In this document: in pieces, positions 16,173-59,287 of the stretch
Position numbering within the stretch: the first letter of the stretch is position 1
How the letters are laid out: every line of letters starts with the position of its first letter
NCBI GenBank assembly: GCA_964590395.1
Contig: CAZPVT010000021.1
Coordinates: 1,329 to 65,328, forward strand
Reading direction: 5' to 3'
Length of the DNA: 64,000 bases
Source: an uncultured bacterium
GTDB lineage: Bacteria > Hydrothermota > Tepidihabitantia > Tepidihabitantales > Tepidihabitantaceae
Position numbers and translations under genes: made by a program
The notes under the pieces: model-generated
Database searches by the model: none
Told to the model about the DNA's origin: nothing
The model's input: the letters and a program-made list of their open reading frames with translations, nothing else

Positions 16173-16236
16173 AGGTGGGTAAATTATGAGACGAAAACAG
16201 TTGACAATGGGTTGTAATAAATCTATAATTAACATT

Positions 16237-16779: not shown

Positions 16780-16789
16780 GGGGGGGAGA

Positions 16790-17599: not shown

Positions 17600-17607
17600 G
17601 GTGTAAT

Positions 17608-18729: not shown

Positions 18730-18751
18730 GATTTTGACATAAGGAGGCAAA

Positions 18752-20356
18752 TTGGCAACTAAAGTCTTTGGCGGGGGTGGTAAAGGCACCCTGTGTATTG
18801 ATATCGGCTCCAATTCGGTGAAATTTGTCAAACTGGAGGGTGGTAGGGTTTTAGATTACGGCTTGAAAGAGATCGGCGAGGCTTTTGATGTGCCCTCCAT
18901 TTTGCGGGAGCTGATCAAGGATTATCGGCCACGGGAGGTTTATACCTTCGTTTCCGGCCCCTCGGTGAGTGTACGTCAGGCACCGTTCCCCAAAATGAAC
19001 CGTCGAGAACTCAAGGATGCGATACTACTGCGTTTGGACAAATATTCCCCATTTACACTGGATGAGGCGATTTTTGACTTTAAGACCCTTGGACCGGTAC
19101 GCGAGGCGGGAGCAATCAAAGACAATGTGATGGTTATTGCTGCGCGCAAGGATATTGTTTCCGATCACATCTCCACCTTGCGTAAGGCAGGGTTAGAACC
19201 TTCAGCGATCAGTGTTGTGCCCTTTACCCTACACGCGGCAGCAAGGAAATTCGGGCGGGTAAAGCCTGATGAGACGATCTGTCTTTTGGACATCGGGGCG
19301 GAATTTACCGATATGGTATTTATGAAAGGAGAGCGGCTGGATTTGGCACGTACTGTTACTGCCGCCGGGAATGCGATTACTGAAGCAATGACCGTGGCTA
19401 TCACTACTGAAGAAGGTCAGTTGGCGCTGGATGCCTATGACGCAGAGGAACTAAAGCGAAAGTACGGTATTCCACCGGAGGATTCCACAGAGCGTTTGCC
19501 TTCCGGGATTATGATCAAACGGCTGTCGATACTCCAGCGGCCGGCTTTAGAGCGATTTATTGCCGAAGTCAACCGTTCCCTTGATTATTACCGCCGGGAG
19601 TTCGGAGAACAGAAGATCGATCGGCTACTGATCTGCGGTGGAACCGCGGCATTGAAAGGGTTAAGGGAGTATCTCCAGACAAGTCTGGGCATACCAACCG
19701 AGGTCTTCGATCCGTTCAAGGATTTTGGATTGTATAAGAGAGGAGTGACACCAGAGGAGGAAATCGGTCACCGGCTGGTAGCGGCACTCGGGTTGTATTA
19801 TGACCATACCGCGGTTGATCTGTTACCGGTGGAGATGAAAGCCGGTCAGTACATTGCCCGGGACATCAGGATGATGACGGTTGGTGGGATATTCTGGGCG
19901 GGGTTGCTGATACTGGGTTATATCTTGGTTGCGGGTTGGTCAGGAATTTCCCGGGCTGCGGTTATGCGATTGAGAAACGAGATTAAGGCGACTGAGGAAC
20001 AGAATCGGACCTATTTTGAATTGGAAAAGGAGATTGCCGATTTAGAGGCAAGACAGCGGGCATTGACGGGTGTTGTTGGCGAGGTTATGCCGGCAGTACC
20101 GGTGATGGCAAAGGTATCAACGATAGTTCCTTTGAATATCCAACTGAACACATTTACCCTGAGTAACCGGACGAATATCAAGTTGACCGGTGTGGTCAGT
20201 GGCGAGCCACATCTTTTAGATGTCGACTTGGCACAGTTTTTAATCGACCTCGAGCGCAGTCCACTTTTTAAGCAGGTGCAGTTAGTTTCCAAGAACCGTA
20301 GTAGCCTGCAGGGTGAGACGGTTCTGGAATTTGAAATCCAGTGTGTTACGGAGTAG
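18752..20356 (+). CDS. pilM: PilM-PilN fusion (type IV pilus assembly)
   Basis: Actin-like IDIGSNSVK, LDIGAEFT, ICGGTA; then VDLLP (PilN INLLP-like), TM helix, coiled coil and LERSPLFKQV PilN-like domain. Confidence 0.85.
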   Translation: MATKVFGGGGKGTLCIDIGSNSVKFVKLEGGRVLDYGLKEIGEAFDVPSILRELIKDYRPREVYTFVSGPSVSVRQAPFPKMNRRELKDAILLRLDKYSPFTLDEAIFDFKTLGPVREAGAIKDNVMVIAARKDIVSDHISTLRKAGLEPSAISVVPFTLHAAARKFGRVKPDETICLLDIGAEFTDMVFMKGERLDLARTVTAAGNAITEAMTVAITTEEGQLALDAYDAEELKRKYGIPPEDSTERLPSGIMIKRLSILQRPALERFIAEVNRSLDYYRREFGEQKIDRLLICGGTAALKGLREYLQTSLGIPTEVFDPFKDFGLYKRGVTPEEEIGHRLVAALGLYYDHTAVDLLPVEMKAGQYIARDIRMMTVGGIFWAGLLILGYILVAGWSGISRAAVMRLRNEIKATEEQNRTYFELEKEIADLEARQRALTGVVGEVMPAVPVMAKVSTIVPLNIQLNTFTLSNRTNIKLTGVVSGEPHLLDVDLAQFLIDLERSPLFKQVQLVSKNRSSLQGETVLEFEIQCVTE

Positions 20357-20359
20357 ACT

Positions 20360-20935
20360 ATGAAACTAATTGAAAGAAGGGTAGTTCTCATCGGAATAGT
20401 TATTTATGTCGTTTTGGGGATCGGCTTTTGGTTTCTGCTTTATCAGCCAAGGTTAAATGCCCGGCAGAAAACTGTTGCTGAGATAAAGGAGTTGCAGAAA
20501 CAACTGGATGAAACCAAGGCACGGATTGCCCAGATGCCCAAATTAAGAGCGAAGAAAGAGCAGTTGGGGATGGAGATAGCCGGCATCTGGGAGCGGGTCG
20601 TTCCCCGTTCAGAGATGCTGGGACTTTTCCGGCAGCTGGCACAGGAGGCAGAGCGCCAGCGGGTACGTTTTTTAGAGGTCGCTCCCCCCGGTTTGGATAC
20701 GCTTTTGGAAGAGGAGGGGCCGAGTGCCCAAGTTCGGCCGGTACCGTTTATGGTAACGGTTCAGGGACGGTACTTGGATATCGGCCGGTTTGTTGAGGGT
20801 CTTGCACAGTACCCATATTTCGTGCGCGTTCCTGATTTTGATATCAATGCTCGTGAGGATATCCGGCCAGAGGTCGAGGCTAAGATGCTGGTTAATATCT
20901 ATGCGTCCAGTCTGGCGGGCAGGAGAGGTTTGTGA
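20360..20935 (+). CDS. pilO: type IV pilus assembly protein PilO
   Basis: N-terminal TM, coiled coil, VTVQGRYLDIGRFVEGL; follows pilMN. Confidence 0.85.
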   Translation: MKLIERRVVLIGIVIYVVLGIGFWFLLYQPRLNARQKTVAEIKELQKQLDETKARIAQMPKLRAKKEQLGMEIAGIWERVVPRSEMLGLFRQLAQEAERQRVRFLEVAPPGLDTLLEEEGPSAQVRPVPFMVTVQGRYLDIGRFVEGLAQYPYFVRVPDFDINAREDIRPEVEAKMLVNIYASSLAGRRGL

Positions 20936-21498
20936 GACGAATTATTATTTTGGTTGTTGTCGTCGCGATGGTAGTGCTGGGGGCCGTGCTCTTTTTACGT
21001 AAGCCGAAAGCCAGTTCAGCTAGTTCAAAGAAAAAGACCACGCAGACAGAATCGGCTTCAGCCACCGAGCAATCAAAATCTCGGGGACGCAGCGCGGGCA
21101 AAACAGCAGGCAGGGTTAAAGCAAAGACCAAAGAGGAGCGTGCGGCAGAACGAAAGCGTATCCGCCAAGAGGAGAAGCGAAGAAGAAAAGAGTTGAAGCG
21201 GCGGGAACGGGAGAGAAAGCGGATGCTGAAGTATGCGCGTAGTCGTCGGGGCAAAAGAAAAACCGGAAGGAAGGGTACTTACTATGTAGTTAAGGCGATA
21301 GTCTCGTTAGGGGACGAGAGTTATGCCCTGATCGATAGTCGCCGGGTTCGAGTTGGTGATGTGGTAATGGGAAGAAAAATTGTAGCAATTCAGTCCGACC
21401 GGATCGAGGTAGAGGCATTTGGACGTCGTACTACGATCAGGGTGGGAGAGAGTCTATTGCCAATGAGTTATTTTACTAGGAAAAGTGGAAGAATTTAA
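20932..21498 (+). CDS. hypothetical membrane-anchored protein, very basic, with PilP/GspC-like beta domain
   Basis: TM helix, Lys/Arg-rich helix, C-terminal ALIDSRRVRVGD...IVAIQSDRI. Confidence 0.6.
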   Translation: MRRIIILVVVVAMVVLGAVLFLRKPKASSASSKKKTTQTESASATEQSKSRGRSAGKTAGRVKAKTKEERAAERKRIRQEEKRRRKELKRRERERKRMLKYARSRRGKRKTGRKGTYYVVKAIVSLGDESYALIDSRRVRVGDVVMGRKIVAIQSDRIEVEAFGRRTTIRVGESLLPMSYFTRKSGRI

Positions 21499-21516
21499 AA
21501 AAGAGAAAGGAGTGTT

Positions 21517-21978
21517 GTGAGGCAGAGATTTTTAGTAATTTTAGCACTGGTAGTGGCGGTGCTGGCGGTCGTTACCCTGGTTCGATCAAAACCTTCAGTT
21601 GCCCCTCAGATTATTACAAATGAAGTGACAACCGAGGTTACGAGACGGGCTAAAGGTAAGGCAGCCAAATTGAAATCGAGGGTTCAAGAGGCGGTAGCAC
21701 CGCTGACCACGCCGAAGGACTTTTCCTCGCCGGTTTATACCGAACCGATTGAATGGGGTAGTGATCCATTCGTGCGTGACTGGATGCTGATGAGTGAGGT
21801 CGCTAATCTTAATCTTAGGGCAATCACAGTAACCAGTGATGGTGGTAGTGCCCTAATCAATGACCAGATAGTCCAAGCTGGTGATTTAATCAGTGGTAAA
21901 AAGGTGGTAAGTATTGAACCCGACCGGGTAACGCTGGAACAGGGTGGTAGGACGTTTACTTTGATATTGGGGGAGTAA
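21517..21978 (+). CDS. PilP/GspB-like membrane-anchored protein
   Basis: TM helix, W.SDPF, ALINDQIVQAGD...VVSIEPDRVTL; precedes the secretin. Confidence 0.65.
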   Translation: MRQRFLVILALVVAVLAVVTLVRSKPSVAPQIITNEVTTEVTRRAKGKAAKLKSRVQEAVAPLTTPKDFSSPVYTEPIEWGSDPFVRDWMLMSEVANLNLRAITVTSDGGSALINDQIVQAGDLISGKKVVSIEPDRVTLEQGGRTFTLILGE

Positions 21979-21981
21979 AGT

Positions 21982-23577
21982 ATGAAAAACACAAAAACAG
22001 TTTTTGTCGCAGTAATTTTTTCTCTTTTCGCCGCAGGTATTATTCAGGCACAAGTAGTCGTTAAGGATGTCGCGGTAGATAAACTGCTGGATGGGGTGCG
22101 AGTGTCGATCGCGTGCATTGGCAATCCCAATATTAGTTCGTTTGTTACCCAGGATCCGCCGGCTATTGTGATTGACATTATGGATGCGAGTGCACGGCTG
22201 ACACAGGAAAGGATTGTTTCTTCTTACTATCCGGTAACCGCAGTAACAGTTAAGCCGAGTGAGGCGATAAATGGAGTACGGGCGACCATTATGCTCAAAA
22301 ATATGATGCGTCATAAAGTTACTAATGAGAACGGGGTGATTGCGGTTCAGGTTGGCACACAACCACTACCGCCACCACCGGCGCCGATGCCGGAAGACCA
22401 GTTCAGCGGAAAGCCGTCCCTGACACTTTTAGTTCAGGATGCTGAGGTTACCAGCGTTTTACGGATGCTTGCTCGCCAGTTCGACCTTAACCTGATGGTA
22501 ACCCAGGATGTAAAGTCAGTAGTCAGCGTGAGATTGAATGAGGTACCGTTGCGGTCTGGTCTGGAAGCGCTGGTGAAAGCCGCGGGGTGTAATATGGTGG
22601 AGGATCGAACCGGTGTGTTGATTGTGAAGCCCTTGAAGAAGGAGATGTACGGAGAGCTACAGACGCGGGTATTTAATTTGGATTATGTTGAGGCCGATGA
22701 CGCACTTAAGGCGATTAAGAAGACGCTGTCACCGTTAGGAGAGGCGGTTCAAGGGTTCCGCCGGGTGGGGACCAAGGGCGGTGGTATGGAACGGAGTGCG
22801 GTGTTAGTGGTAAGTGATGTTCCCGAAGCATTAGAAGAGGTGGCGAAGGTAATTGCGGAGTTAGACCGTCCGATGGCCCAAATTGCTATTGAGGCGAAGT
22901 TTATTGAAACTACCCGTTCATCCCAAGACCGGTTCGGAATTGACTGGACACCGGTTGCATCATTCAGCACCGAGTTACCCGAGATTGGTGATGAAGTGGC
23001 TGTTCCTGTCATTATCAAGGAGATGCTGGTCGGCAAGATTTCCTTTTCTCAATTTACCGCGGCTATTGAGTTGGTGATGTCCCGAGGCAGGTCGCGGGTA
23101 CTTGCCAATCCGAGGACAGTCACACTGGATAATCAAACCGCATCGGTGAGTATGGGACTGGATGTACCGATTCGTGAGGTTAATAAGGATCCGAATACCG
23201 GTGAAATTACTTATACTTGGCGGACACGGTCGATTCCGATAAAAATGGAGGTTACCCCACATGTAACTTCTGACGGAATGATTACAATGAACGTGAAACC
23301 ATCGGTTTCTGCGATCACCGGCTGGGTCGGTTCGGCAGATGACCGACAACCGATAGTGGCAAAGCGTGAAGCAGAGACACAGGTCAAGGTTGCAGAGGGT
23401 GAGGTAGTAGTAATCGGGGGACTGGTGAAGGATGAAGAGACGAAAAATGTCGGTAAAATTCCGTTACTTGGCGACATTCCATTTCTTGGCCATCTATTTA
23501 AGAAGACCTCGATTGAGCGGACGAAGAGCGATCTGATGATATTTATCATTCCGCACATTATTAATCCGGAGGGGTAA
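21982..23577 (+). CDS. pilQ: secretin PilQ (AMIN-like, N-domains, secretin domain)
   Basis: QIAIEAKFIE, LANPRTVTLDNQTA, VTPHV, VIGGL, KIPLLGDIPFLG.LF. Confidence 0.93.
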   Translation: MKNTKTVFVAVIFSLFAAGIIQAQVVVKDVAVDKLLDGVRVSIACIGNPNISSFVTQDPPAIVIDIMDASARLTQERIVSSYYPVTAVTVKPSEAINGVRATIMLKNMMRHKVTNENGVIAVQVGTQPLPPPPAPMPEDQFSGKPSLTLLVQDAEVTSVLRMLARQFDLNLMVTQDVKSVVSVRLNEVPLRSGLEALVKAAGCNMVEDRTGVLIVKPLKKEMYGELQTRVFNLDYVEADDALKAIKKTLSPLGEAVQGFRRVGTKGGGMERSAVLVVSDVPEALEEVAKVIAELDRPMAQIAIEAKFIETTRSSQDRFGIDWTPVASFSTELPEIGDEVAVPVIIKEMLVGKISFSQFTAAIELVMSRGRSRVLANPRTVTLDNQTASVSMGLDVPIREVNKDPNTGEITYTWRTRSIPIKMEVTPHVTSDGMITMNVKPSVSAITGWVGSADDRQPIVAKREAETQVKVAEGEVVVIGGLVKDEETKNVGKIPLLGDIPFLGHLFKKTSIERTKSDLMIFIIPHIINPEG

Positions 23578-23634
23578 TTTACCCGAGCACTTGATCGTGG
23601 AAATGAGCGTGGGTGATAGTTCTCATTACCGTGA

Positions 23635-24771
23635 ATGAATATTGATGAGCTGTTACGTTATGCGGCAAAGTATGGTGCGTCAGACTTACACATAACCGCA
23701 GGAAATTCTCCGGTCATCCGGGTTAACGGCCGGTTAAAAAAAATTCCAGGACCAGCACTGAGTGGTGAGGATGCAGAGGCGCTGGTATATTCTATTTTGA
23801 ACGATGAACAGCGGGACGCAGTAGAACGGAAAAGGGAGATCGACCTTTCATATACCTGGGGGAATGCGACCCGGCGAGTTTTACCTGAGTCACTGACTTT
23901 GGAATATATTACTCCGGAGCGGGTCAGGGCAAGGGTTAATGTGTTTTTGGACCTGAACGGGGTGGGTGCGGCTTTCCGGATTATCCCGGCAAAAATCAGG
24001 ACACTTGAGGAATTACCAGCACCTTCCTCGGTCGCCGAGTTAACAAGGTGCCACTCTGGATTGGTTTTGGTTACCGGACCAACCGGGTGCGGGAAGTCAA
24101 CAACCCTTGCCAGCATGATTGACCTGATTGACCAGGAGCGGGCAGTGCGGATAATTACCATTGAGGATCCGATTGAGTACATCTTCCAGCCGCACAACTG
24201 TCTTATTAGCCAGAGGGAGATCGGTACCCATTCCCAGTCATTTGCTTCTGCATTGCGCGCCTGTCTACGTGAAGACCCAGACGTCATTCTGTTGGGTGAA
24301 ATGCGAGATCTCGAGACCATCAGCCTTGCTCTGACCGCAGCAGAGACCGGTCATTTGGTGCTTTCTACACTGCATACTAATAATGTTGCGGAGACGGTTG
24401 ACCGGGTGATTGATGTATTTCCCGCGGACCAGCAGGAGTATGTTCGGCAGGTGTTTGCCAGCGTGGTTCGGGGCATAATTTCTCAGATACTTTTACCTCG
24501 CCGTGATGGCCGAGGCAGGGTTGCAGCGATGGAGGTGCTAATCGCCACTCCGGCAATCAAAAATTTGATCCGGGAGGCAAAAATTCATCAGATTCCGTCA
24601 TTGGTGCAGACCGGCTCCCAGTATGGGATGCAGACGATGGATCAGTGTCTTGAGATACTTTTGAGCCGGAACCTGATTGCGCCGGAAATTGCTTATGCGG
24701 TGGCGAATGAGAAAAAATTATTTGTGCCTCCTGAGGCACCGGTTTCGGTGCCCGGTCCAAAGGGGCAGTGA
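23635..24771 (+). CDS. pilT: pilus retraction ATPase PilT
   Basis: GASDLHI, GPTGCGKST, TIEDPIE, LREDPDVILLGEMRD, AIKNLIRE, GMQTMD. Confidence 0.95.
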   Translation: MNIDELLRYAAKYGASDLHITAGNSPVIRVNGRLKKIPGPALSGEDAEALVYSILNDEQRDAVERKREIDLSYTWGNATRRVLPESLTLEYITPERVRARVNVFLDLNGVGAAFRIIPAKIRTLEELPAPSSVAELTRCHSGLVLVTGPTGCGKSTTLASMIDLIDQERAVRIITIEDPIEYIFQPHNCLISQREIGTHSQSFASALRACLREDPDVILLGEMRDLETISLALTAAETGHLVLSTLHTNNVAETVDRVIDVFPADQQEYVRQVFASVVRGIISQILLPRRDGRGRVAAMEVLIATPAIKNLIREAKIHQIPSLVQTGSQYGMQTMDQCLEILLSRNLIAPEIAYAVANEKKLFVPPEAPVSVPGPKGQ

Positions 24772-29503: not shown

Positions 29504-29782
29504 ATGGCCCTTAAACAGGTATATCAGGCAGAGAATGAGTTGATGGCAAATACGATTAAGGATCTGCTTGAGCAGAGCGGAATTCCGGCGCTGGTTCACT
29601 CTTTTCAGATTCCGGCTTATGACGGAGTGGCACAGGTGATGCGGCCAGCCTGGGGTGAGGTTCTGGTTGAGGAGGAGGATCTGGCGCGGGCAAAGGAGAT
29701 TATTAACGGGTTTATTACCGGTGAAACAGTGCAGGATGGAGAGGCGGACAGTTCAATAACCGAGGGTGATGAGCGGTCTTAA
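29504..29782 (+). CDS. DUF2007-like putative signal-transducing protein
   Basis: VYQAENELMANTIKDLLEQSGIP...VLVEEEDLARAKEII; promoter TTGATA-17-TATAAT 8 nt upstream. Confidence 0.8.
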   Translation: MALKQVYQAENELMANTIKDLLEQSGIPALVHSFQIPAYDGVAQVMRPAWGEVLVEEEDLARAKEIINGFITGETVQDGEADSSITEGDERS

Positions 29783-35469: not shown

Positions 35470-37275
35470 TCAGGATTCGTTTCTTAGCCAGTGATAGATG
35501 CTTTCTGCAAGGGCTTTGCCGATACCTTTCACATGGGCGATTTCTTCCTTGGAGGCACCGCGGAGTTTAGACATTGAGCCAAAGTGTTGGATAAGAGTCC
35601 GGTGGCGGGCAGGACCGATGCCAGGAATCGCTGCCAATTGAGACCGTAGAGCATTTTTCGTCCGAAGTCTGCGGTGCCACGAGATAGCAAAACGGTGGGA
35701 TTCGTCGCGGATAAGTTTTAAGAGTTTCAACGCCGGTGAGGTGGGAGGAATTGTTATTTCGCGACCGTCAAGGTAAGAGAGGGTGTCAGTGCGTTTGGCA
35801 AGACCGATGATCGGAATTTCTTGGTCGTACTGATGATAGGCGTTAATCGCTGCTGAAAGTTGACCTTTTCCGCCGTCAACGAGTACTAAGTCCGGTAGGG
35901 GCAGGTTTTTTTCCAGAAGGCCGCGCACACGACGGGCAAGGACCTCGGTGATCATCGCGAAGTCGTTCGGGCCAGAGACATTTTTTATTTTGAAAATCCG
36001 ATACTGATTTCTCAGTGGTCTGGTGTCCTGAAAAACCACCACCGAGCCTACCGCATTTGTTCCCTGGGTATTGGAGATATCGACACCTTCAATTCGGCGG
36101 GGAGGGGAACTTAATTCCAATATTGCCTGTAGTTCCCGGTTTGCTTTGGGGATACGGTCAGATAGATGGGATAACTCAACAAGTGCCTTTTCAGCATTGT
36201 GTTGGGCTAACTCCACCAGTTTGAGTTTCTCACCTCTTGTTGGCACGGTGAATCTCACCCGGCGTTTTCTATTTTCCGCAAAGACCTGTTCAAAAATGTT
36301 AAATGCGGTTATCGGCACCGGTAGGACAATTTCATCGGGCAGATCAGCGGTATGGGTGTAAACCGAACGCAGAACCCCTTCCAGAATTTCTTCATCAGGC
36401 ACGGTTTTATCGGCGGAAAGTGAGTACTGTTCTCGGGCAACGATTCTGCCCTCGCGGATTCTAAAGATTACTGCTACCGCTACCCGTTGTCCTTTTGCCA
36501 ATCCGATGACATCACGCGCGGTCCGATCGTTTGTTATCACCTGCTGATGTCGGACGATTTCCCGTAGGGCAAGTAGTTGATCCCGCAGGGTTGCCGCCTG
36601 TTCGTAGCGCTGGGTACGGGCTTCCTTCCACATCCTTTGTTCCAGCTCGCCGATCAATTTGTCTGACCTTCCAGCGAGAAACTCAATCACGTCATTAACG
36701 ATTTGATGGTAAGTGGTTTGATCGATATTGCCAATACAGGGAGCAAGGCAGCGCTTGACTTGAAAGTTAATACATGGTTGGTGAATCTTTTCGTCGGGAA
36801 GGCTTTTTTTGCAGGTGCGGATTTTAAATATTCTGCGCACCGCACGTAGTGCCCGGCGTAATTCCTTAGCACTGGTATAAGGTCCAAACAGTACTGAGCC
36901 GTCGGGTTTGATATTGCGGGTAATGAAAATTCGCGGGAACTTTTCGGTTGTGGTGATTTTTAGATACGGATATTTTTTATCATCCCGTAGTCGAACATTG
37001 AAGCGCGGTTTTTTGATTTTGATCAAACTTTCCTCTAAGAGCAGTGCCTCAACCTCGGAGCGTGTGACGATTGTCTCGCAGTCAGCAACCCGTCGGGTTA
37101 GGGCGGTAAGACGGGGTTCATTCTGAGGCTGGAGATAGCCACGGAGCCGCTCCTTTAAATCCCGTGCTTTACCGATGTAAAGCACCTTGCCCTGGGCATC
37201 CTTTAAAAGATAAACGCCTGGTTCGTTGGGAGCGCACCTTACCTTTTCGGCAAAATTGGCTTTCTGATTGGACAT
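35470..37275 (-). CDS. uvrC: excinuclease ABC subunit C
   Basis: PGVYLLKD...LYIGKA GIY-YIG domain, RIEGVDISN, DGGKGQL, RDESHRFA, HhH. Confidence 0.98.
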   Translation of the reverse strand: MSNQKANFAEKVRCAPNEPGVYLLKDAQGKVLYIGKARDLKERLRGYLQPQNEPRLTALTRRVADCETIVTRSEVEALLLEESLIKIKKPRFNVRLRDDKKYPYLKITTTEKFPRIFITRNIKPDGSVLFGPYTSAKELRRALRAVRRIFKIRTCKKSLPDEKIHQPCINFQVKRCLAPCIGNIDQTTYHQIVNDVIEFLAGRSDKLIGELEQRMWKEARTQRYEQAATLRDQLLALREIVRHQQVITNDRTARDVIGLAKGQRVAVAVIFRIREGRIVAREQYSLSADKTVPDEEILEGVLRSVYTHTADLPDEIVLPVPITAFNIFEQVFAENRKRRVRFTVPTRGEKLKLVELAQHNAEKALVELSHLSDRIPKANRELQAILELSSPPRRIEGVDISNTQGTNAVGSVVVFQDTRPLRNQYRIFKIKNVSGPNDFAMITEVLARRVRGLLEKNLPLPDLVLVDGGKGQLSAAINAYHQYDQEIPIIGLAKRTDTLSYLDGREITIPPTSPALKLLKLIRDESHRFAISWHRRLRTKNALRSQLAAIPGIGPARHRTLIQHFGSMSKLRGASKEEIAHVKGIGKALAESIYHWLRNES

Positions 37276-37299: not shown

Positions 37300-38757
37300 T
37301 TATCCTTTAACTACTCCCAGCGGTTTCATCCGGGCTACTTTGCGCGCAATCCCGGCACGATGACAGACATCAACTACCTGGTCAACATCCTTATAGGCAT
37401 CCGGTACCTCTTCGTTTAAGACTTCCCGGCTTGCCGCCATTACCAGAATACCCTTTGCCCTCAATTCCGCTGCGACATCCCGACGTTTAGTCTCCTCCAG
37501 CGCCTTGGTTCTTGACCAGACCCTGCCCGCACCATGACAGGCAGAGCCGAAGGTCTGTTCCACAGCCGTGGTGGTTCCTAAAAGCAGGTAGGAACTCCTC
37601 CCCATATCGCCGGGGATAATCACGGGTTGACCGAGATGCCGGTATTTTTCCGGAAGGGCAGGATGGTTGGGAGGAAATGCCCTGGTCGCTCCTTTGCGAT
37701 GGACACAGAGTTTCATTCGCTTGCCGTTAATGGTGTGTTCTTCGATCTTGGCGATGTTGTGGGCAACATCGTAAACCTGAGTCATCTGCAGTTGTTCGAT
37801 CGGGATACCTAATACTTCAGAGAAGGCTTCACGTACCCAGTGGGTGATTGCTTGACGGTTTGCCCAGGCATAGTTGGCAGCGGCAACCATTGCCCCGAAA
37901 TATTTCTTTCCTTCTGAGGAATCAATCGGAGCACAGGCAAGTTGCCGGTCCACTAATTCGATGCCATATTTACGGGCCGCGGCGATGAGAGATTTCACAT
38001 TGTCGTCACAGATCTGGTAACCTAAACCGCGGGACCCGGTATGAATCATCACGGTAATCTGATGGAGATGAATGCCCAGTTCAGTTGCCGCCTGTTGATC
38101 ATAGATCTCCCCCACCTCCTGGATTTCCAAGAAATGATTTCCTGCACCCAGGGTGCCCAGTTGGGGCATACCCCTTTCCAGGGCGCGTTGCGAGACCCCG
38201 GAGAGATCAGCACCCGACATCTCGCCGTGCTCTTCAGTATATTCCAAGTCCTCCTCCGTTCCGTAACCCTGTTCCACTGCCCAGCGCGCGCCCATTGTCA
38301 GGACCTGGGTAACGGTTTCTTTAGAAATTCTGATTTTACCTTTTGAGCCCACACCGGAGGGTACATTATAAAATATAGCCCGAACAAGTTTTTCGAGTAG
38401 TTCCGGTTTTAAGTCCTGGCGCTCCAAACGGGTGCGTAACAGACGGACACCGCAGTTGATATCATAGCCCACCCCTCCCGGGGAAATAACACCGGTATTA
38501 GCGTCAAATGCAGCAACTCCCCCAATTGCAAATCCGTATCCCCAGTGGATATCAGGCATCGCAAGAGAGTGTTTGACAATTCCGGGCAGTGTGGCGACAT
38601 TGGCAACCTGTTCAGGTGCCTGGTCTGCTTTAATGTTCTCAATTAGATTGGCATCGGCATAGATAATACCGTCAACCCTCATTCCCGGCTTATAACTTTT
38701 CGGGATCAACAGCCGGGTGTCGTCGATCCTCTGTAGTGGCCCATTCCATCCTGCCAT
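37300..38757 (-). CDS. rtcB: RNA-splicing/repair ligase RtcB
   Basis: MPDIHWGYGF, GYDINCGVR, GNHFLE, HTGSRG, HRKGATR, HGAGR. Confidence 0.97.
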   Translation of the reverse strand: MAGWNGPLQRIDDTRLLIPKSYKPGMRVDGIIYADANLIENIKADQAPEQVANVATLPGIVKHSLAMPDIHWGYGFAIGGVAAFDANTGVISPGGVGYDINCGVRLLRTRLERQDLKPELLEKLVRAIFYNVPSGVGSKGKIRISKETVTQVLTMGARWAVEQGYGTEEDLEYTEEHGEMSGADLSGVSQRALERGMPQLGTLGAGNHFLEIQEVGEIYDQQAATELGIHLHQITVMIHTGSRGLGYQICDDNVKSLIAAARKYGIELVDRQLACAPIDSSEGKKYFGAMVAAANYAWANRQAITHWVREAFSEVLGIPIEQLQMTQVYDVAHNIAKIEEHTINGKRMKLCVHRKGATRAFPPNHPALPEKYRHLGQPVIIPGDMGRSSYLLLGTTTAVEQTFGSACHGAGRVWSRTKALEETKRRDVAAELRAKGILVMAASREVLNEEVPDAYKDVDQVVDVCHRAGIARKVARMKPLGVVKG

Positions 38758-38843: not shown

Positions 38844-40226
38844 TTATTGGCAAATAAGTAGTTTTTGCAAGCGATTTTTCTCCTTAATGAAATAAACACC
38901 CCTTTTTATGTTGGAATGGTCTGCATAAATCCGACGGCCGGTGACATCAAAGAGTGCTTTGTTATTACCAATAGTAAATCCTGTTGGTGGTTTTGATTGG
39001 GTTAACGGCAATGCCCGAGCAAAATATAGGCCGTTTGCCCAGGTTTGCCCATAATAACAGAACAGCGCACCGTTGGGTAAAGCCCGTGGACGTGCGCCGT
39101 TAAACAGCGCATTGGCGCGCTGGTCGTTCAGGCTGACTGGTGAGGACCAGGCTTGGGGAGCATAGGCACGGGCGTAGCGGTAATAAACCGATGTTTGACC
39201 TGCGGAAAACCGGTCCCCAGCGTTATATACCAGATATGACGACCCTTGGTCAGCAAAGATTGATGGCCACCATTCGTCGATGAAAATCTCCCCGAGAGTT
39301 ACCGGGGTGCTAAAAGAGTTGCCACCATCGGTAGAGAAGGAGGATACTAAGTCGAGCATTTCGGTGTCGCGCCGGGCGATGGTCCAGACAGCCCAGATTG
39401 GAGCACGCCAGGGTGGTGTAGTGTCCGCCTGGGCAACTTTGGGGTTAAAACATTTTTCACCGGTGGCGTAAAGGACCTGCAGTCCGGACCAGCGGGCTGG
39501 TGCACCGTAGTAGCGGTTCTGGGTATAATGGATTTCCCTGCTGTTTATGGCAAAACGCCAGATGCAGTGTAAAACCGAGTTAGCACCAAGAGAGAGATGC
39601 GGGTCAAAGGTGTTATAAAAATCCTGCTCCATTTCCCAGGTGATGCCGTAATCCAGGGAGCGGGTAAATCTGCCGTTGCGACCACTGCGGTGCTGATTAA
39701 TATACAGACAATAGAGGTAGTAATTCGGGCTGGGATCAAGCGCAACAGCGAATTGATCAACAGTATCCGGACCTACTGCCAGGGGTAGGTTTTGCCAGTT
39801 GCTCAGGTCAGGCTGAATCCTAAGCAGCCAGAGGTCACCACCGGCGTCCGGAGTCAGATAGAATACAAAAAGATATGCGGAGTCACCATAACCTTTTAGC
39901 AGTTCAACGGATTTAACCTGGGCAGGCAGAAGAATCCTCAGGGGTTCGCGCCAGTAGTTGCCACCATCTTCAGATTGGTATATTTTTAGCAGGCTTTCTG
40001 GCGTGCATACCGCGACATAAATTGTTCCGTTTTCATCGCTGGTTGCACCGAAGGCAAGGATAAAGCCCGAATCCACCTGAATATCGGTTCGGGAAGTGAT
40101 TGCCGGAGGGTTTTGTTCAGGAGATGGTTGGGCAGATTGGTTTAAAGAAGTAGAGACTGTAAGAGCCGGGCCGGAAAGGTAGCTTAAGAAAATGTATACC
40201 CGGAGCAAGAGAAATAAAGTAGTCAT
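38844..40226 (-). CDS. secreted BNR/Asp-box beta-propeller protein with short C-terminal sorting tail
   Basis: SEDGGNYW, SLDYGITW, STDGGNSF Asp-boxes; LFDVTGRR...GVYFI tail. Confidence 0.75.
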   Translation of the reverse strand: MTTLFLLLRVYIFLSYLSGPALTVSTSLNQSAQPSPEQNPPAITSRTDIQVDSGFILAFGATSDENGTIYVAVCTPESLLKIYQSEDGGNYWREPLRILLPAQVKSVELLKGYGDSAYLFVFYLTPDAGGDLWLLRIQPDLSNWQNLPLAVGPDTVDQFAVALDPSPNYYLYCLYINQHRSGRNGRFTRSLDYGITWEMEQDFYNTFDPHLSLGANSVLHCIWRFAINSREIHYTQNRYYGAPARWSGLQVLYATGEKCFNPKVAQADTTPPWRAPIWAVWTIARRDTEMLDLVSSFSTDGGNSFSTPVTLGEIFIDEWWPSIFADQGSSYLVYNAGDRFSAGQTSVYYRYARAYAPQAWSSPVSLNDQRANALFNGARPRALPNGALFCYYGQTWANGLYFARALPLTQSKPPTGFTIGNNKALFDVTGRRIYADHSNIKRGVYFIKEKNRLQKLLICQ

Positions 40227-40359
40227 TCTCTTTTTAAAAGTTAAATTAAAACTGGATAAATGTCAATTTATAGCAATCAGAGGTTTAGTTAATTAGCCGA
40301 AAATTTCAGCATTTGATTTTTCTTGCGTAGACTAATTCAGCAGATATAATAACATAAAG

Positions 40360-42000
40360 GTGCGTGCGATGCCTTACCAGGAGCAAAAGCCGGTTGTGCT
40401 GGTGGTTTATGATACCACCGAGAAATATTTTGCGTTGATTGAGGCGATAAAAAGATATGCACAGGGCAGGCTATGGAAGGAGTTCAAGTTTGAACACTGT
40501 GACTGTCTTAAGGCGGTTCAGAACTGGTATGCTCGTAACCGTGGTAAGTTTGTCTCCCTGCTGGTTATCGGTGTAGATTTTAGCAAGATCGACAACGAGC
40601 AAAAACTGGTTTCCTTTCCCTACGGTCTGCGTCCCGCGGGCGTCGAAGTCGACATTAGGTTCCTGCAGGGGTTCATCATTTATCATCATCTCCGTCATTT
40701 TGCCATTGAACGGATTGCGCCGGTAGTTTTTCATCTCAGCGGTACTGATCTGGCGATGCCCGAGCGTTTTGTCGATTTCATTCATTCCCCGGGATTGGGC
40801 AGTTGTGTTTTCGCTGGTATTTATCCTGAATGCAGTGATGAGATGATGGGCGGCGAGATTTTACAGAAGATCGAGCAATGTGCCCTGCGGCCGCTCAGTG
40901 ATGAAAAGCGAAGGTCCTGGCAGAAAACGCACAGTATGGTTGTTGGACGGTCGCGGCGGATGGCAGCGCTGGTTCAAGAGGTCGAGCGGCTGGCACCCAC
41001 TGATGCGATTGTTTTAATTATTGGGCCGCCAGGAGCGGGTAAAGAGCTGGTTGCCCGGGCATTACACCGGTTGAGTTTTCGCTTCTCAGCAACCGAGCCC
41101 AATCGGCAGGAACCGCTGGTGGTGAACATCCCTTCTTTGGAGAGAAATATTTGTCTTGATGAACTATTCGGTCACGAAGCCGGTGCGTTTACCGATGCTA
41201 AAACCGCACGGGCAGGTATCTTTGAAAGTGCTCGCGGGTCAACCGTTTTTCTCGACGAGATCGGGGAGATTGACCAGGAAATGCAGAAAAACTTGCTTCG
41301 GGTGATTGAATACCACCGGATTAAGCGCTTGGGCAGTTCTTATGAACGGGAGGTTGATGTCAGGGTAATTGCTGCCACCAATCGGCGAATTGAGGAGTTA
41401 CAGGAGCGGTTCCGCTTTGATTTCTATACCCGAATGGTTCAGCAGTGTCTCGCAGTTCCCTCACTGAGGGAACGGTGGGCAGATGAGGCTGAGGCGACTA
41501 TTGAGGCGGATGTGGCTGATTTTTTTGATTTCTTTATCAGCGAGATGAACCGAAACCCTTGGGTAAGTCAGAAAATCCAGCCGGACCGCAATGCGGTCAA
41601 ATTCCTTACCCAGATTGTGATCCAGCACATCCAAGATAAACGGCAAATATTTATCGGCAATGTCCGAAGTTTGCGCAGTGTCATTCAGCAGGCTTACGAA
41701 CGGGCACAGTACGAGAATACCAGGGTCGTGGGGGTGGGACAGATTGCTACCGCGGCCGCACAGTTTCAGTCACAAAGTACGGTGCCGGTCGGTGTCGCTG
41801 CTGGTGGTGCTCAGTTATCCGATACCACCATAGGGCTAAAGGGATTTGATATTGAAGGCATATTCGGTACGTTGAATTTAGCGGCGATTGAAAAGGCGGT
41901 CATTAAGGAGGCACTGGCAAAATGCCAAGGCAACCAGTCAAAAGCAGCCCAGATATTAGGCATTCATCGCGACACCCTAAGGAAGAAAATTAACCATTAA
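40360..42000 (+). CDS. sigma54-dependent transcriptional activator (bEBP) with unrecognised N-terminal sensor domain
   Basis: GPPGAGKE, ELFGHEAGAFTDA, FLDEIGE, RVIAATN, GNVRSL, Fis-type HTH GNQSKAAQILGIHRDTL. Confidence 0.93.
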   Translation: MRAMPYQEQKPVVLVVYDTTEKYFALIEAIKRYAQGRLWKEFKFEHCDCLKAVQNWYARNRGKFVSLLVIGVDFSKIDNEQKLVSFPYGLRPAGVEVDIRFLQGFIIYHHLRHFAIERIAPVVFHLSGTDLAMPERFVDFIHSPGLGSCVFAGIYPECSDEMMGGEILQKIEQCALRPLSDEKRRSWQKTHSMVVGRSRRMAALVQEVERLAPTDAIVLIIGPPGAGKELVARALHRLSFRFSATEPNRQEPLVVNIPSLERNICLDELFGHEAGAFTDAKTARAGIFESARGSTVFLDEIGEIDQEMQKNLLRVIEYHRIKRLGSSYEREVDVRVIAATNRRIEELQERFRFDFYTRMVQQCLAVPSLRERWADEAEATIEADVADFFDFFISEMNRNPWVSQKIQPDRNAVKFLTQIVIQHIQDKRQIFIGNVRSLRSVIQQAYERAQYENTRVVGVGQIATAAAQFQSQSTVPVGVAAGGAQLSDTTIGLKGFDIEGIFGTLNLAAIEKAVIKEALAKCQGNQSKAAQILGIHRDTLRKKINH

Positions 42001-42002
42001 AT

Positions 42003-42040
42003 TGCCGTATTTTTATGCTTTGTTGCCGTAAAAAACGGCA
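42003..42040. promoter_or_regulatory. tandem bEBP enhancer (UAS) sites
   Basis: TGCCGT-AAAAA-ACGGCA (42024-42040) plus a degenerate copy TGCCGT-ATTTT-TATGCT 21 bp upstream. Confidence 0.65.
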
Positions 42041-42137
42041 GTTGTATTTAGTGGATTGAAAACGGTGTTTTGATTGTTTGTGATATAATATGTTGATTTA
42101 GCGTATCTTATATTTTATTACCGTATAAAATGAGCAA

Positions 42138-42154
42138 TTGGCATAATTTTTGCA
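42138..42154 (+). promoter_or_regulatory. sigma54 -24/-12 promoter
   Basis: TTGGCATAATTTTTGCA with exact GG-N10-GC spacing; IHF consensus TAATATGTTGATT at 42086-42098. Confidence 0.85.
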
Positions 42155-42164
42155 TTTATATATA

Positions 42165-42295
42165 TCGGGACCGAGCCTTAATGAGGGAGGCTTATTTGAG
42201 GGGGAGGTGCCGCGCCGAAAACCCCTCCCTGCCTTAGACTTTTAGAGGGGAAAAAACATGACGCACCAGTGCTCACGGTGCGTCATGTTTCTTTA
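42165..42295 (+). ncRNA. candidate sigma54-dependent small RNA (~130 nt)
   Basis: Lies between the sigma54 promoter and an intrinsic terminator; internal hairpins; only an 18-codon ORF. Confidence 0.6.
42254..42295 (+). terminator. intrinsic terminator
   Basis: 14-bp stem AAACATGACGCACC/GGTGCGTCATGTTT ending in TTTCTTT. Confidence 0.8.
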
Positions 42296-42419
42296 TAAAT
42301 TTATTGAAGGTTTAACAATCGGTGGAAAGATGCGGAAAAAGTGGTTTTAAGGGAAAACGCGTCGTGGACGATAGTGAGTATTGTTGACATTGAAAGGAAG
42401 TTTTTTATGCTATGTTACT

Positions 42420-43784
42420 ATGAAACAGTTCCTTAAACAGGTTATTGACGGGCTGGCAGTTGATTATGCGGAGATCAGGGTTGAAGAAAACGAGAGAGTT
42501 CGGGTTGTCTATCGGGGTAAGGAAGTGGATGATGTTGGTAAAGCTTACGAAAGCGGTGGTTGTATTCGTGTCTTTTACCAAGGCAACTGGGCGGTAGGGA
42601 CATTTAACATTGTGGATGAAAGTATCAGGAATATTGCATTGGAACTGGCAAGTCAAGTACAGAAGTTGCCAAGGCGTGAAGGTGGGTTGATAAAATTGCC
42701 CGCATTCCACGAGACAGTTAAACTTGTTACCAGACACGACCCGCGCCACATTAGCATTGCGGAAAAGGAGGGACTGATTCGGCATTATAACCAGATTTTG
42801 CTTAATACCCGGGGTATCGTCAGCACGTTATGTGGTTATCAGGACAGTTATCGGAAAGTTTTCTGGTATTCAAGCGAGGACCGTTACATTGAACAGGAGT
42901 TTGGCTGGCTGGGTTTTTCCTGCCGAGCGATTGCCCGAGACGGAACCAATGTTCAGGATTACGGTGAATCGGTGGGTAAAACTTTGGGTTTTGAGGCGAT
43001 AACCGGTCGTGAAGAAATGGTCGAGAGGGTGGCGAAAATTGCGCTTGATTTGCTCAGGGCTGAGCCGGTTACTGCGGGCCGTTATACGGTAATCATTGAT
43101 CCGTTATTAGCCGGGGTTTTTGCCCATGAGGCGTTTGGTCATTTGAGTGAATCAGACCATATTGCGGAAAATGAGCGACTCAGATCGCTGATGCGCATTG
43201 GCACCAGATATGGGGTAGATGAGTTGACGATTGTTGATGACCCCACTTTGCCGTTGGAAAAAGGTAGTTACCGGTATGACGATGAAGGCGTGCCAGCACA
43301 GCGGACCGAGTTAATTCGCAATGGGTTAATCGCCCAGCATCTGCACAGCAGGCAGAGTGCTTATCTGATGGGCGAGAGTGTTACCGGCAATGCCCGGGCG
43401 ATATCTTATCGCTATGCACCGATTGTTCGGATGAGTAATACCTATATTGAACCCAGGAATCTGACGTTAGGTGAAATGCTTGAGGGGGTTGATGACGGAC
43501 TCTATGTTGTGGGCAGCCGGGGCGGAATGACCGAACTGGAGTCTTTCACCTTCTCCTCGCTTTATGCTTTTAAGATTGAGAAGGGGAAGCGAACAAAGAT
43601 GGTGCGTGATGTTACCATTTCTGGTAATGTGTTTGAGACCTTGAGGAATATCGATGGCATCGGTAGCGACCTGGTTATCTACGGTGGATTAGGGGGGTGC
43701 GGGAAAGCGGACCAAGCACCCCTGCCGGTAGCAACCGGGGCACCGCATCTACGGATCAGGAATGTGATCATCGGGGGGAGATGA
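42420..43784 (+). CDS. tldD: TldD metalloprotease
   Basis: HEAFGHLSE, YDDEGVP, GNARA, RMSNTY, CGK..Q.PLPV..G.P; start ATG 42420 after TTGACA-16-TATGCT. Confidence 0.92.
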   Translation: MKQFLKQVIDGLAVDYAEIRVEENERVRVVYRGKEVDDVGKAYESGGCIRVFYQGNWAVGTFNIVDESIRNIALELASQVQKLPRREGGLIKLPAFHETVKLVTRHDPRHISIAEKEGLIRHYNQILLNTRGIVSTLCGYQDSYRKVFWYSSEDRYIEQEFGWLGFSCRAIARDGTNVQDYGESVGKTLGFEAITGREEMVERVAKIALDLLRAEPVTAGRYTVIIDPLLAGVFAHEAFGHLSESDHIAENERLRSLMRIGTRYGVDELTIVDDPTLPLEKGSYRYDDEGVPAQRTELIRNGLIAQHLHSRQSAYLMGESVTGNARAISYRYAPIVRMSNTYIEPRNLTLGEMLEGVDDGLYVVGSRGGMTELESFTFSSLYAFKIEKGKRTKMVRDVTISGNVFETLRNIDGIGSDLVIYGGLGGCGKADQAPLPVATGAPHLRIRNVIIGGR

Positions 43785-51003: not shown

Positions 51004-52932
51004 TCAGCGGGTGATCACCACTCTAGTTGTCCTTTTGCCTTTGATAAAGTAGACCCCCGGGCTTATTCCCTGCAGATCATTCAGACCGGCTTGAAGTTTA
51101 CGCACCCTTTTGCCGGTGATATCAAAAAGTTCCGCAGGCAGACTCCGGTCTGGTAGTTTCAGGCTACTGGTGACCACAGTGGGTTCAGGATGCGGTGCCG
51201 GTTCTATCTGTTCGGAGCCGATACCCAGAGGATTAAAACCGATTACTCGCAAGCCTGCTGAGTGGTCTGCAACGAGGATATAGTTTCCCGTGAACGCGAC
51301 ATCATAGGCACTTGCCGGTGTATCATAGTAGCCAACCTCAGTGAGTTGCCTCGGGTTGATGATCTCGATTATCCGCAACCCTGCACTGCCGTCCGCCACA
51401 TAGGCGTAGATCCCTTCTACCTGGATACCGTAAGCATAACCCGGTGTATTGTAATAGCCGATTTCGCTGGGGCTGACGGGATCGGTTATCTCGATTATCC
51501 GCAACCCTGCACTGCCGTCCGCCACATAGGCATATCTGCCAACCACCTGGAGATCAAGGGCGTAACCAGGTGTATCATAATAACCGATCTCCTCGGGATT
51601 GAGCGGGTCGTTGATGTCAATTATCCTTAAACCGTAACCGCCGTCTGCGAGATAGGCATAACCGCCGGCAACTGTAACACCACGGGCATCACCCGGTGTG
51701 TCGTAATAACCGGTTTCGTAAGGGTTAACAGGATCGGTTATATCAATTATCCTTAAACCGTAACCGCCGTCTGCGAGATAGGCATAACTGCCGGTAACTG
51801 TAACACCACGGGCATCACCCGGTGTGTTGTAATAACCGGTTTCGTAAGGGTTAACAGGATCGGTTATATCAATTATCCGCAAGCCCGCATACTCGTCTGC
51901 GAGATAGGCATAGTTGTCGTCTGTATCAACACCGCAAGCCCTGGCCGGGGTTTCATAGTAGCCGACCTCATCTGGACTGCGCGGGTTGCTGATGTTGATG
52001 ATCCTTAAACCCTCAAACAGGTCTGCTACACAGGCATAACCTCCTGACAGGGTAACACCACGGGCATTACCCGGGGTATCGTAATAGCCGACCTCATAGG
52101 GATTGCCCGGGTTGCTGATGTCAATAATCCGTAAACCACTGGAATGGTCCGCCACACAGGCATAACTTCCTGACAGGGCAACCGCAAAAGCCGAGCCCGG
52201 AGTGTCATAGTAGCCAATTTCAATTGGACTGCGCGGGTTACCAGCATCAACTACCCGCAAGCCCGCGTTCTGGGCAACAACGTAGGCATATCTGCCTGAA
52301 ATCGCAACCCCGCGGGACCAGTCCGGCAGGTAACAATAACCGACCTCCGCTGGATTTCCGGGATCGCTGATGTCAATTATGCGCAGTCCTGAATCCCGGT
52401 CTGCCACATAGGCATAACCGCCCGCTACCGCCACACCCAGAGCCCAGCCCGGGGTATCATAATAACCGACCTCCGCTGGATTTCCGGGATCGCTGATGTC
52501 AATTATGCGCAAGCCACCGGCATTGTCCGCAACACAGGCATAGTTGCCTGAGACCGCAATCGCGCGTGCTTCGCCGGGTGTGTTACAGGCACCGAGTTTT
52601 ACCGGAGATACCGGATCGGTAACATCCCAGATCTCCACTCCGGTATACCCGTTAGCAACATAAAGGAGATTGTTATTATAGAAAAGATGCTCGACAACAC
52701 CACTGGTGCGAATTTCAGACAGTTTTCTCGGCTGGGCAGGGTTGGAGATATCAAGCAAATAAATTCCACCCCCTGAGCCCATAAAACTGACCTGTCTTTG
52801 TATATCAACCGCCACCGCAGCGGTTGGACCAAAGGGCCAGGTACCGATTTGCCGGCAGTTTAATGAGTCCTGGGACCAGATAGAACCGCAGAACAGACCA
52901 ACCGCCACCGTTGCCTGTAGAAGGAGTTTCAT
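51004..52932 (-). CDS. secreted LVIVD-repeat beta-propeller protein with C-terminal sorting tail
   Basis: About 12 x 42-aa repeats YAYVAD..GLRIIDI..P..P.E.GYYDTPG; LFDITGK...PGVYFI tail; promoter TTGACA-17-TATAAT. Confidence 0.9.
   Translation of the reverse strand: MKLLLQATVAVGLFCGSIWSQDSLNCRQIGTWPFGPTAAVAVDIQRQVSFMGSGGGIYLLDISNPAQPRKLSEIRTSGVVEHLFYNNNLLYVANGYTGVEIWDVTDPVSPVKLGACNTPGEARAIAVSGNYACVADNAGGLRIIDISDPGNPAEVGYYDTPGWALGVAVAGGYAYVADRDSGLRIIDISDPGNPAEVGYCYLPDWSRGVAISGRYAYVVAQNAGLRVVDAGNPRSPIEIGYYDTPGSAFAVALSGSYACVADHSSGLRIIDISNPGNPYEVGYYDTPGNARGVTLSGGYACVADLFEGLRIINISNPRSPDEVGYYETPARACGVDTDDNYAYLADEYAGLRIIDITDPVNPYETGYYNTPGDARGVTVTGSYAYLADGGYGLRIIDITDPVNPYETGYYDTPGDARGVTVAGGYAYLADGGYGLRIIDINDPLNPEEIGYYDTPGYALDLQVVGRYAYVADGSAGLRIIEITDPVSPSEIGYYNTPGYAYGIQVEGIYAYVADGSAGLRIIEIINPRQLTEVGYYDTPASAYDVAFTGNYILVADHSAGLRVIGFNPLGIGSEQIEPAPHPEPTVVTSSLKLPDRSLPAELFDITGKRVRKLQAGLNDLQGISPGVYFIKGKRTTRVVITR
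51617..51878. repeat. near-identical 126-bp intragenic tandem duplication
   Basis: 51617-51742 and 51743-51868 differ at 3 positions by eye. Confidence 0.9.
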
Positions 52933-58840: not shown

Positions 58841-59287
58841 ATGGTGAAGGTAGTTGCCACAAACCGGAAGGCGCTACGGGATTATACCGTTTACGAGAAA
58901 ATTGAGGCCGGGATTGCCCTTGCGGGAACCGAGGTGAAATCACTGCGGGAAGGGGGCGCCGCATTAAATGGCGGTTATGCGGTGGTGGAGGATGGGGAGG
59001 TCTATCTTTATGATGTTAATATCGCGCCGTATCGTCAGGGTAATATCTTTAACCGTGATCCCAGACGGCGCCGAAAACTTTTGTTCCACAAGGATGAGAT
59101 CAAACGGCTGTTTGGCAAAACCACACTGCGCGGTTTCACCCTGATTCCGCTACGGCTGTATTTCAATGAGCGGGGAATCGCCAAAGTGGAGCTAGCACTA
59201 TGTAAAGGTAAGAAGGCAATTGACCGGCGCGAGGAGTTGAAGCGTCGAGAAATGGAGCGGGACGAAAGACAATGGCGTTCAGGATAG
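58841..59287 (+). CDS. smpB: SsrA-binding protein
   Basis: NRKA, EAGIALAGTEVKSLR, RRRKLL.HK.EI, KGKK..DRRE; start may be GTG 58844. Confidence 0.98.
   Translation: MVKVVATNRKALRDYTVYEKIEAGIALAGTEVKSLREGGAALNGGYAVVEDGEVYLYDVNIAPYRQGNIFNRDPRRRRKLLFHKDEIKRLFGKTTLRGFTLIPLRLYFNERGIAKVELALCKGKKAIDRREELKRREMERDERQWRSG

Follow-up and report, generated by a model that had tools for sequence, protein, structure and literature searches.

A candidate sigma-54-dependent small RNA gene directly behind an NtrC-class activator gene in candidate division WOR-3

In a 64-kb stretch of DNA from an uncultivated bacterium of candidate division WOR-3 (the whole stretch is called the window below), a gene for an NtrC-class sigma-54 activator, a bacterial enhancer-binding protein (bEBP), is followed on the same strand by a spacer and then by tldD. 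What does this activator control, and is the spacer transcribed into an RNA of its own, into a leader of tldD, into the message for a short peptide, or into nothing of consequence? A preliminary description of the DNA had proposed an undescribed regulatory small RNA under the control of the activator. On the sequence analyses reported here, we rate as somewhat better than even the case for a sigma-54-dependent small RNA gene of about 130 nt (~42165 to 42295, plus strand), directly behind its activator gene. The elements of the proposed unit are the following.

42002-42009, plus strand: TTGCCGTA, a left half-site that recurs 21 bp further on, in the palindrome; possible second, weaker activator site
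42024-42040, no strand: exact 17-bp palindrome TGCCGT-AAAAA-ACGGCA; putative enhancer (upstream activating sequence, UAS)
42086-42098, minus strand: match to the integration host factor (IHF) consensus, WATCAANNNNTTR, between palindrome and promoter
42118-42125, plus strand: TTACCGTA, a third, imperfect half-site copy just upstream of the -24 element
42139-42154, plus strand: predicted -24/-12 promoter TGGCAT-AATTT-TTGCA (TGGCATAATTTTTGCA), intergenic
42165-42253, plus strand: predicted transcript body, with the start placed about 12 nt past the -12 GC, near 42164-42167
42251-42297, plus strand: predicted intrinsic terminator, a stem of 14-17 bp (arms 42251-42267 and 42277-42293) followed by TTTCTTTAT

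All positions on both strands of the window were scored against the familiar sigma-54 consensus TGGCAC-N5-TTGCW, which has 11 specified positions. The site at 42139-42154 agrees with 10 of these core positions and has the GG-N10-GC spacing, a T replacing the C of TGGCAC. Described earlier as a perfect promoter, it is in fact near-perfect, and it is the top-scoring site with both GG and GC on either strand of the 64 kb. Fourteen sites in the window score at least 9; outside open reading frames (ORFs) there are only two of them, this one and a site at the window edge (65-80), and 42139 is the sole sigma-54 promoter candidate near the activator gene. Base composition changes along the spacer, from 22-27% GC over 42040-42159 to 52-58% over 42160-42279 and 33% after the terminator.

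The palindrome TGCCGT-N5-ACGGCA is found as an exact match only once in the window, with its centre ~108 bp upstream of the -24 element. When up to three mismatches are allowed, the window contains 42 matches versus 25.3 expected. The hexamer TGCCGT is overall at chance frequency (32 copies on both strands), and three of its copies fall within 38 bp here. Likewise, two of the three copies of TTGCCGTA in the window are located here (42002-42009 and 42023-42030). The preliminary description had seen two UAS-like sites 21 bp apart. The downstream site is exact and the repeat of TTGCCGTA has this spacing, but the upstream site (42003-42019) amounts to a left half-site, with a perfect TGCCGT on the left and a right half that matches at only 2 of 6 positions (read by eye). 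A direct repeat (D1) links 41996-42010 with 42112-42126 at 80% identity. The IHF consensus was recovered where it had been described, on the minus strand; there are four such matches in the window versus 2.6 expected, one of which lies within the ~100-bp interval between enhancer and promoter. Sigma-54 promoters have the bEBP enhancer about 80-150 bp upstream, and an IHF site frequently separates the two. The order and spacing of enhancer, bend site, promoter and terminator at this locus are textbook sigma-54 geometry, and the listed features are more than chance.

The strong terminator reported before is borne out by its 17-nt arms, which are 94% complementary, and by a folding energy of -23.3 kcal/mol; it is positioned ~90 nt past the predicted start. 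The stem is preceded by AAAAAA, hence followed by TTTTTT on the minus strand, so that the terminator is bidirectional in form; read as a minus-strand terminator, the hairpin at 42251-42297 is even more canonical. A minus-strand RNA using this hairpin was considered and rejected, because a consensus scan of 41500-43000 found no promoter-like site on the minus strand and the ORF orientations show no gene on the minus strand heading toward the hairpin over more than 5 kb.

The predicted body carries G-rich tracts at 42185, 42198-42207 and 42245, and a C-rich tract, CCCCTCCC, at 42222. The Shine-Dalgarno (SD)-like and anti-SD-like tracts noted in the preliminary description are thus present, GGGAGG at 42185 and 42202 as SD-like and the C-rich tract as anti-SD-like. 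The hairpins that it listed (GAGCCT/AGGCTT and GAGGGG/CCCCTC) also exist, although the 89-nt body as a whole folds no better than shuffled sequences. CCCCUC has two possible partners, the upstream and the downstream GAGGGG, and the resulting folds are nearly equal in energy. Because of these alternative pairings, and because the fold is at the level of shuffles, a single body structure is not credible without covariation. No ORF of 20 or more codons starts after the predicted start and ends before the terminator.

The search of Rfam that had been suggested yielded no matching family at the unit. With Rfam 15 at gathering score, the only match in the window was a tRNA (2673-2746). At E-values up to 10, the interval 41900-42450 gave terminator-shaped noise only, all of it far below gathering, and the covariance models of CrcZ, Pxr, Qrr and GlmY did not match at the unit. 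ARAGORN, run on 41500-43000, found no tRNA or tmRNA-like gene. Of the proposal of an undescribed regulatory RNA, what stands is a complete promoter-terminator unit that has neither an ORF of at least 20 codons nor an Rfam match; what does not is the expectation of a structured body, which folds at chance level.

The reading depends equally on the gene that precedes the unit.

40369-42000, plus strand: gene of the NtrC-class sigma-54 activator, 543 aa from ATG 40369; the ORF opens at GTG 40360

The stop codon is TAA (41998-42000). ATG 40369 is the likely start, with AAAGGTG and a TTGCGT-16-TATAAT promoter (read by eye) before it, and exactly this 543-aa form is present in a collection of 15 billion proteins. 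Pfam identifies a Sigma54_activat domain (PF00158, 6.4e-47) and a Fis-type helix-turn-helix (HTH) (HTH_8, PF02954, 2.9e-14, residues 507-544), and nothing in residues 1-190, with no Response_reg match. Homology searching returned ~75 full-length relatives (42-77% identity, 97-100% coverage). Those with a taxon name all belong to candidate division WOR-3, and a few are labelled just "bacterium". Below these orthologues, the score falls sharply to generic response regulators that cover 58-70% of the query. An alignment of 73 family members was used for the conservation counts and for an AlphaFold model, which reached a pLDDT (predicted local distance difference test) of 90.6. The model consists of a (beta-alpha)5 domain (~12-174), a linker helix, the AAA+ module, a disordered segment (479-496) and HTH helices (507-545). 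The best Foldseek matches in the PDB were NtrX, NtrC1, NtrC4, FleQ, LuxO and VpsR, all of them receiver-plus-AAA+ proteins.

The Walker A, Walker B and arginine residues are invariant across the 73 aligned sequences. Together with the pLDDT and a fold like that of NtrC1, NtrX, FleQ and LuxO, this indicates that the activator is intact. Of the 73 members, 48 have GAFTGA as the sigma-54 contact loop and 25 have GAFTDA. In the receiver-like domain, D18 and D73, which we take to be the acidic-pocket and acceptor positions, are each retained in 62 of 73, and the conserved Lys after strand 5 is absent in the alignment. The domain hits, the model, the Foldseek ranking, the missing Lys and the loop counts suggest an activator of the NtrC class whose receiver is atypical and possibly independent of phosphorylation. 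The sigma-54 interaction domain is kept throughout the family, and this retention across 73 members, of which all that bear a taxon name are WOR-3, lends indirect support to the presence of rpoN in the genome.

We then compared the unit with the regions behind other bEBP genes. A contig search with the 73-sequence activator alignment, based on generic AAA+ peptide patterns, gave at least 599 stretches, from which 80 loci were kept. These unrelated bEBP loci served as the control set, and in 75 of the 80 the sequence extends 350 nt or more past the stop codon. Of these 75, 12 contain a sigma-54 core match with a score of at least 9 between -30 and +300 relative to the stop. Rfam, run on 11 of these 12 (L010 was left out), detected CrcZ in three Pseudomonas-type CbrB-like loci (L014-L016), starting ~12 nt past the promoter match, and Pxr in one (L070, Corallococcus, with an Nla19-like gene), where the promoter match is 213 nt after the stop. 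Among the eight loci without an Rfam RNA, seven (L006, L010, L019, L045, L054, L060 and L071) have an ORF of at least 90 aa ~10-105 nt after the promoter, and the eighth (L072) has ORFs of 85-98 aa only. The WOR-3 unit resembles the small-RNA loci, because the 266-nt gap to the next gene holds a strong terminator, and we read it as a sigma-54-dependent small RNA gene since the same layout holds CrcZ and Pxr in unrelated loci. The layout itself is already known from Pseudomonas and Myxococcus; the predicted RNA is of no known Rfam family. Using blastn-short against the window and the 80 control loci, we found no paralogue of 42001-42300, only chance matches of 13-14 nt. As a separate observation, P36 (RF01679) was found at 7030-7090 in L014 and 7039-7099 in L016, after the cbrB-like stop and before the CrcZ promoter match. 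This position in the Pseudomonas loci is that of the palindrome or hairpin behind the activator gene here.

We infer the following course of events. The activator, as a dimer or higher oligomer, would bind at 42002-42040, where the palindrome is flanked by the TTGCCGTA half-site. DNA bending of the IHF type at 42086-42098 would bring the activator to RNA polymerase-sigma-54 at 42139-42154, ATP hydrolysis would open the promoter, and transcription would stop at the intrinsic terminator (42251-42297). The RNA probably regulates in trans. How it might act is a matter of guesswork; our preferred guess is base pairing through the SD-like G-rich tracts or the anti-SD-like CCCCUCCC tract, and our second is titration of a GGA-binding protein. 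A bolder version, which we put forward as speculative and on the whole doubtful, is that this activator is an orphan specific to WOR-3, with a pseudo-receiver that works independently of a kinase, and that an undescribed class of small RNA is its main or only target. The SD-like (GGGAGG, GGGGGAGG, GAGGGG) and anti-SD-like (CCCCUCCC) tracts of this RNA would form a switchable decoy that competes with ribosome binding sites or with the anti-SD of 16S rRNA. If so, WOR-3 would gain its first defined regulatory RNA circuit, and this in an organism that seems to use both strong-SD and leaderless mRNAs.

To our knowledge, no regulatory RNA has been described for candidate division WOR-3, and a literature search for a WOR-3 regulatory RNA or enhancer-binding protein found nothing among the matches listed. 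A small RNA gene at this locus would provide a clean regulatory circuit (sensor-activator, enhancer, sigma-54 promoter and small RNA) for this division; no general principle would be changed.

The gene on the far side of the unit has transcription signals of its own.

42384-42411, plus strand: sigma-70-like promoter of tldD, TTGACA-16-TATGCT, ending 8 nt before ATG 42420
42420-43784, plus strand: tldD, 454 aa from ATG 42420 (the start chosen by the gene caller and the form in the protein collection)

The separate tldD promoter mentioned in the preliminary description was recovered by the consensus scan. There is no SD at usable spacing before the ATG; the only match to a loose regular expression is an AGGA 22-25 nt upstream. 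With a promoter that ends 8 nt before the start codon and no SD, the tldD mRNA is probably leaderless, as far as its sequence tells. By the same loose expression, an SD-like motif precedes 24 of 49 ORFs in the window. A TATAAT-like hexamer 3-9 nt before the ATG, without an SD, was observed for rtcB (37300-38757), a murJ-like gene (13800-15389), the ORFs at 12762-13718 and 29504-29782, and smpB (58841-59287), while other genes of the window carry strong AAGGAGG sites. The organism thus seems to mix leaderless and strong-SD mRNAs. With the pattern present in at least five other ORFs, leaderless mRNAs seem common here, and tldD fits this class.

Short ORFs are also found in the spacer.

42181-42237, plus strand: 18-codon ORF (MREAYLRGRCRAENPSLP), the only ORF wholly inside the unit
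42258-42350, plus strand: 30-codon ORF, with GAGGGG 7 nt before its ATG

The wider neighbourhood comprises divergent genes upstream of the activator gene and a protease-related group downstream.

35470-37275, upstream of and divergent from the activator gene: uvrC
37300-38757, minus strand: rtcB, two genes from the activator gene and divergent from it
38844-40226, minus strand: BNR-like gene, 460 aa, upstream of the activator gene and divergent from it
Downstream of the activator gene, same strand: two TldD/PmbA-family genes and a LonB/LonC-like protease gene

The protein encoded at 38844-40226 has a BNR_2 match below threshold only (25.4 bits, cut-off 31.4), has no NCBIfam match and forms a singleton cluster in the protein collection. 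A type IV pilus or type II secretion-like cluster at 15636-24771 includes several prepilin-type genes, pilM, a secretin gene and pilT. Pilin genes are sigma-54-dependent in some bacteria; in the window scan, no sigma-54 core match was found before this cluster. A 126-nt (42-codon) tandem repeat forms two adjoining arrays at 51434-52239 (3.8 and 2.3 copies, 75-80% match), within an ORF of the 'choice-of-anchor B' family (642 aa, 51004-52932).

Several observations speak against a small RNA gene controlled by this activator. The activator here has GAFTDA where the canonical loop is GAFTGA, and among the 47 window ORFs scanned there was no rpoN, hfq or csrA. None of the 80 loci kept from the contig search is orthologous; they come from other phyla and align at 30-48% identity with no more than query residues 165-546. 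For the 89-nt body the folding energy is -29 kcal/mol, versus a shuffle mean of -30.4 (z +0.43, with 138 of 200 shuffles folding at least as well). The z of -3.1 for the whole RNA is owed to the terminator, and the opposite strand reaches -3.3. When the body was run in RNAduplex against 49 translation-start regions of the window, the best energy was -38.5 kcal/mol, a value surpassed by 23 of 25 shuffled RNAs. There are also two short ORFs that overlap the unit. Finally, the palindrome also folds as a weak hairpin (-9.7 kcal/mol), scored terminator-like after the activator gene, and could be just the weak terminator of that gene. These points in part support the reading that the elements are real matches but without function. 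The promoter would then be a relic or a chance match in AT-rich DNA between genes, and the palindrome and the hairpin would do no more than terminate the activator gene and other transcription nearby. The low GC content of the promoter region, in which A/T-rich motifs such as the IHF consensus arise easily, is compatible with this reading, as are the terminator-like score of the palindrome, the chance-level structure of the body and the lack of an orthologous locus among the 80. The reading would nevertheless require four independent rare elements to have come together in canonical order and spacing within 300 bp beside an activator gene, among them the best promoter and the only exact palindrome of the 64 kb, and it leaves the hairpin with no minus-strand gene, by ORF orientation over more than 5 kb, to terminate. 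We regard it as rather improbable. An unlikely but slightly less strained proposal is that the sigma-54 promoter regulates the tldD-pmbA-lonC-like operon. In this case the target of the activator would be a protease module, and the 130 nt that end in the terminator would act as a 5' leader or attenuator. tldD has the same orientation and begins 124 nt past the terminator; of the 8 control loci that lack a known RNA, 7 use the promoter after the activator gene for a protein-coding gene; and the two partners of CCCCUC offer alternative folds. These alternative pairings leave the terminator stem untouched, however. In folds of the nascent RNA, the 5' arm stays single-stranded (probability ~0.8-0.9) until the 3' arm has been transcribed, nothing upstream pairs with it, and with the 3' arm barred from pairing no alternative structure captures it, so that no antiterminator was found. 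The terminator also persists in a 276-nt fold extended to 42440. On thermodynamic grounds, this argues against an attenuator. In addition, the sigma-70-like promoter of tldD is placed for a leaderless mRNA, and a transcript reading through from the sigma-54 promoter would deliver tldD without an SD and poorly translatable.

The product might instead be a short mRNA for a micro-protein, encoded by the 18-codon or the 30-codon ORF. Both exist, the former having been named in the preliminary description as the alternative product; the latter has a GAGGGG-N7-ATG arrangement, and the succession of G-rich, C-rich and G-rich tracts could mask and unmask this GAGGGG as an SD. The 18-codon ORF has no good SD upstream, and its codon log-odds (-0.17 per codon) are below those of all 46 window genes scored (minimum 0.079), which is weak evidence for so short an ORF; an ORF shifted by two bases outscores it. 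The 30-codon ORF begins inside the terminator stem and ends 53 nt past the terminator, so that a terminated transcript cannot encode it. An exact look-up of six short spacer ORFs in the 15-billion-protein collection found none, whereas the three flanking proteins were present, each on five contigs; gene callers had predicted none of the six on contigs of this organism. We consider a micro-protein quite improbable. The proximity of rtcB, two genes away and divergent, brings up a further candidate, an RtcR-type RNA-repair regulator acting on rtcB with a Y-RNA-like partner, and the activator does have an NCBIfam RtcR match (6.2e-56). The match (NF038308) is confined to residues 179-541, that is, to the AAA+ and HTH parts, and reaches 190 bits where the cut-off is 650; the N-terminal domain has a (beta-alpha)5 receiver-like fold, with NtrX, NtrC1 and FleQ rather than CARF as the best structural matches. 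Neither a sigma-54 core match nor a TGCCGT site is present in 40227-40368 or before rtcB; that gene carries a TATAAT 7 nt upstream of its ATG. Searches at the unit returned neither a Y RNA nor a tRNA-like or other Rfam match. The partial match, the receiver-like fold and the lack of a sigma-54 site at rtcB largely refute this candidate, which we hold to be barely credible. A sigma-54-dependent small RNA gene remains our preferred interpretation.

How does such a unit compare with known systems? The preliminary description had invoked LuxO-Qrr and GlrR-GlmY, in which an NtrC-class activator and a sigma-54 promoter likewise drive a small RNA encoded near the activator gene. This much of the parallel holds. 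However, qrr1 and glmY are upstream of or divergent from the regulator operon and not directly behind the stop codon, and the unit matches neither the Qrr nor the GlmY family of Rfam. CbrB-CrcZ and Nla19-Pxr are closer parallels, because in both the small RNA gene is immediately downstream of the activator gene.

CbrB is an NtrC-class activator with an N-terminal receiver, and the activator described here is of this class, with a receiver-like domain in that position. CbrB has a partner kinase, CbrA, whereas domain scans of the window ORFs showed no kinase gene adjacent to our activator, whose receiver lacks the conserved Lys. CrcZ (RF01675) also differs, as it is ~400 nt long and sponges Hfq/Crc via CA-rich motifs, in contrast to the predicted ~130 nt rich in G and C tracts. 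The arrangement is nonetheless alike, with a same-strand small RNA gene immediately after the activator gene and, in L014-L016, an RpoN promoter ~160-170 nt past the stop. In the account given in PMC5113210, the CrcZ gene is directly downstream of cbrB and has its own RpoN promoter.

Nla19-Pxr (RF01812), of Myxococcus and other myxobacteria, is the closest in size and layout. As far as it is described in PMC5568312, Pxr is a ~110-nt RNA directly downstream of the gene for a sigma-54-dependent response regulator, with a predicted sigma-54 promoter and several stem-loops, the last of which is a terminator. It differs from the unit here in that there is no similarity in sequence or by covariance model, in belonging to another phylum, and in gating fruiting-body development, for which no counterpart can be inferred here. 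In yet another phylum, the sigma-54 regulome of Desulfovibrio vulgaris, as reconstructed by comparative analysis in PMC4641369, includes four non-coding RNAs among its targets; the paper also mentions regulators of non-coding RNAs in free-living species. If the unit behind the WOR-3 activator gene is what we propose, the CrcZ/Pxr-type layout of an activator gene followed by a small RNA gene would extend to a distant lineage, which would suggest that it has come about more than once and could serve as a rule in searching for new small RNAs.

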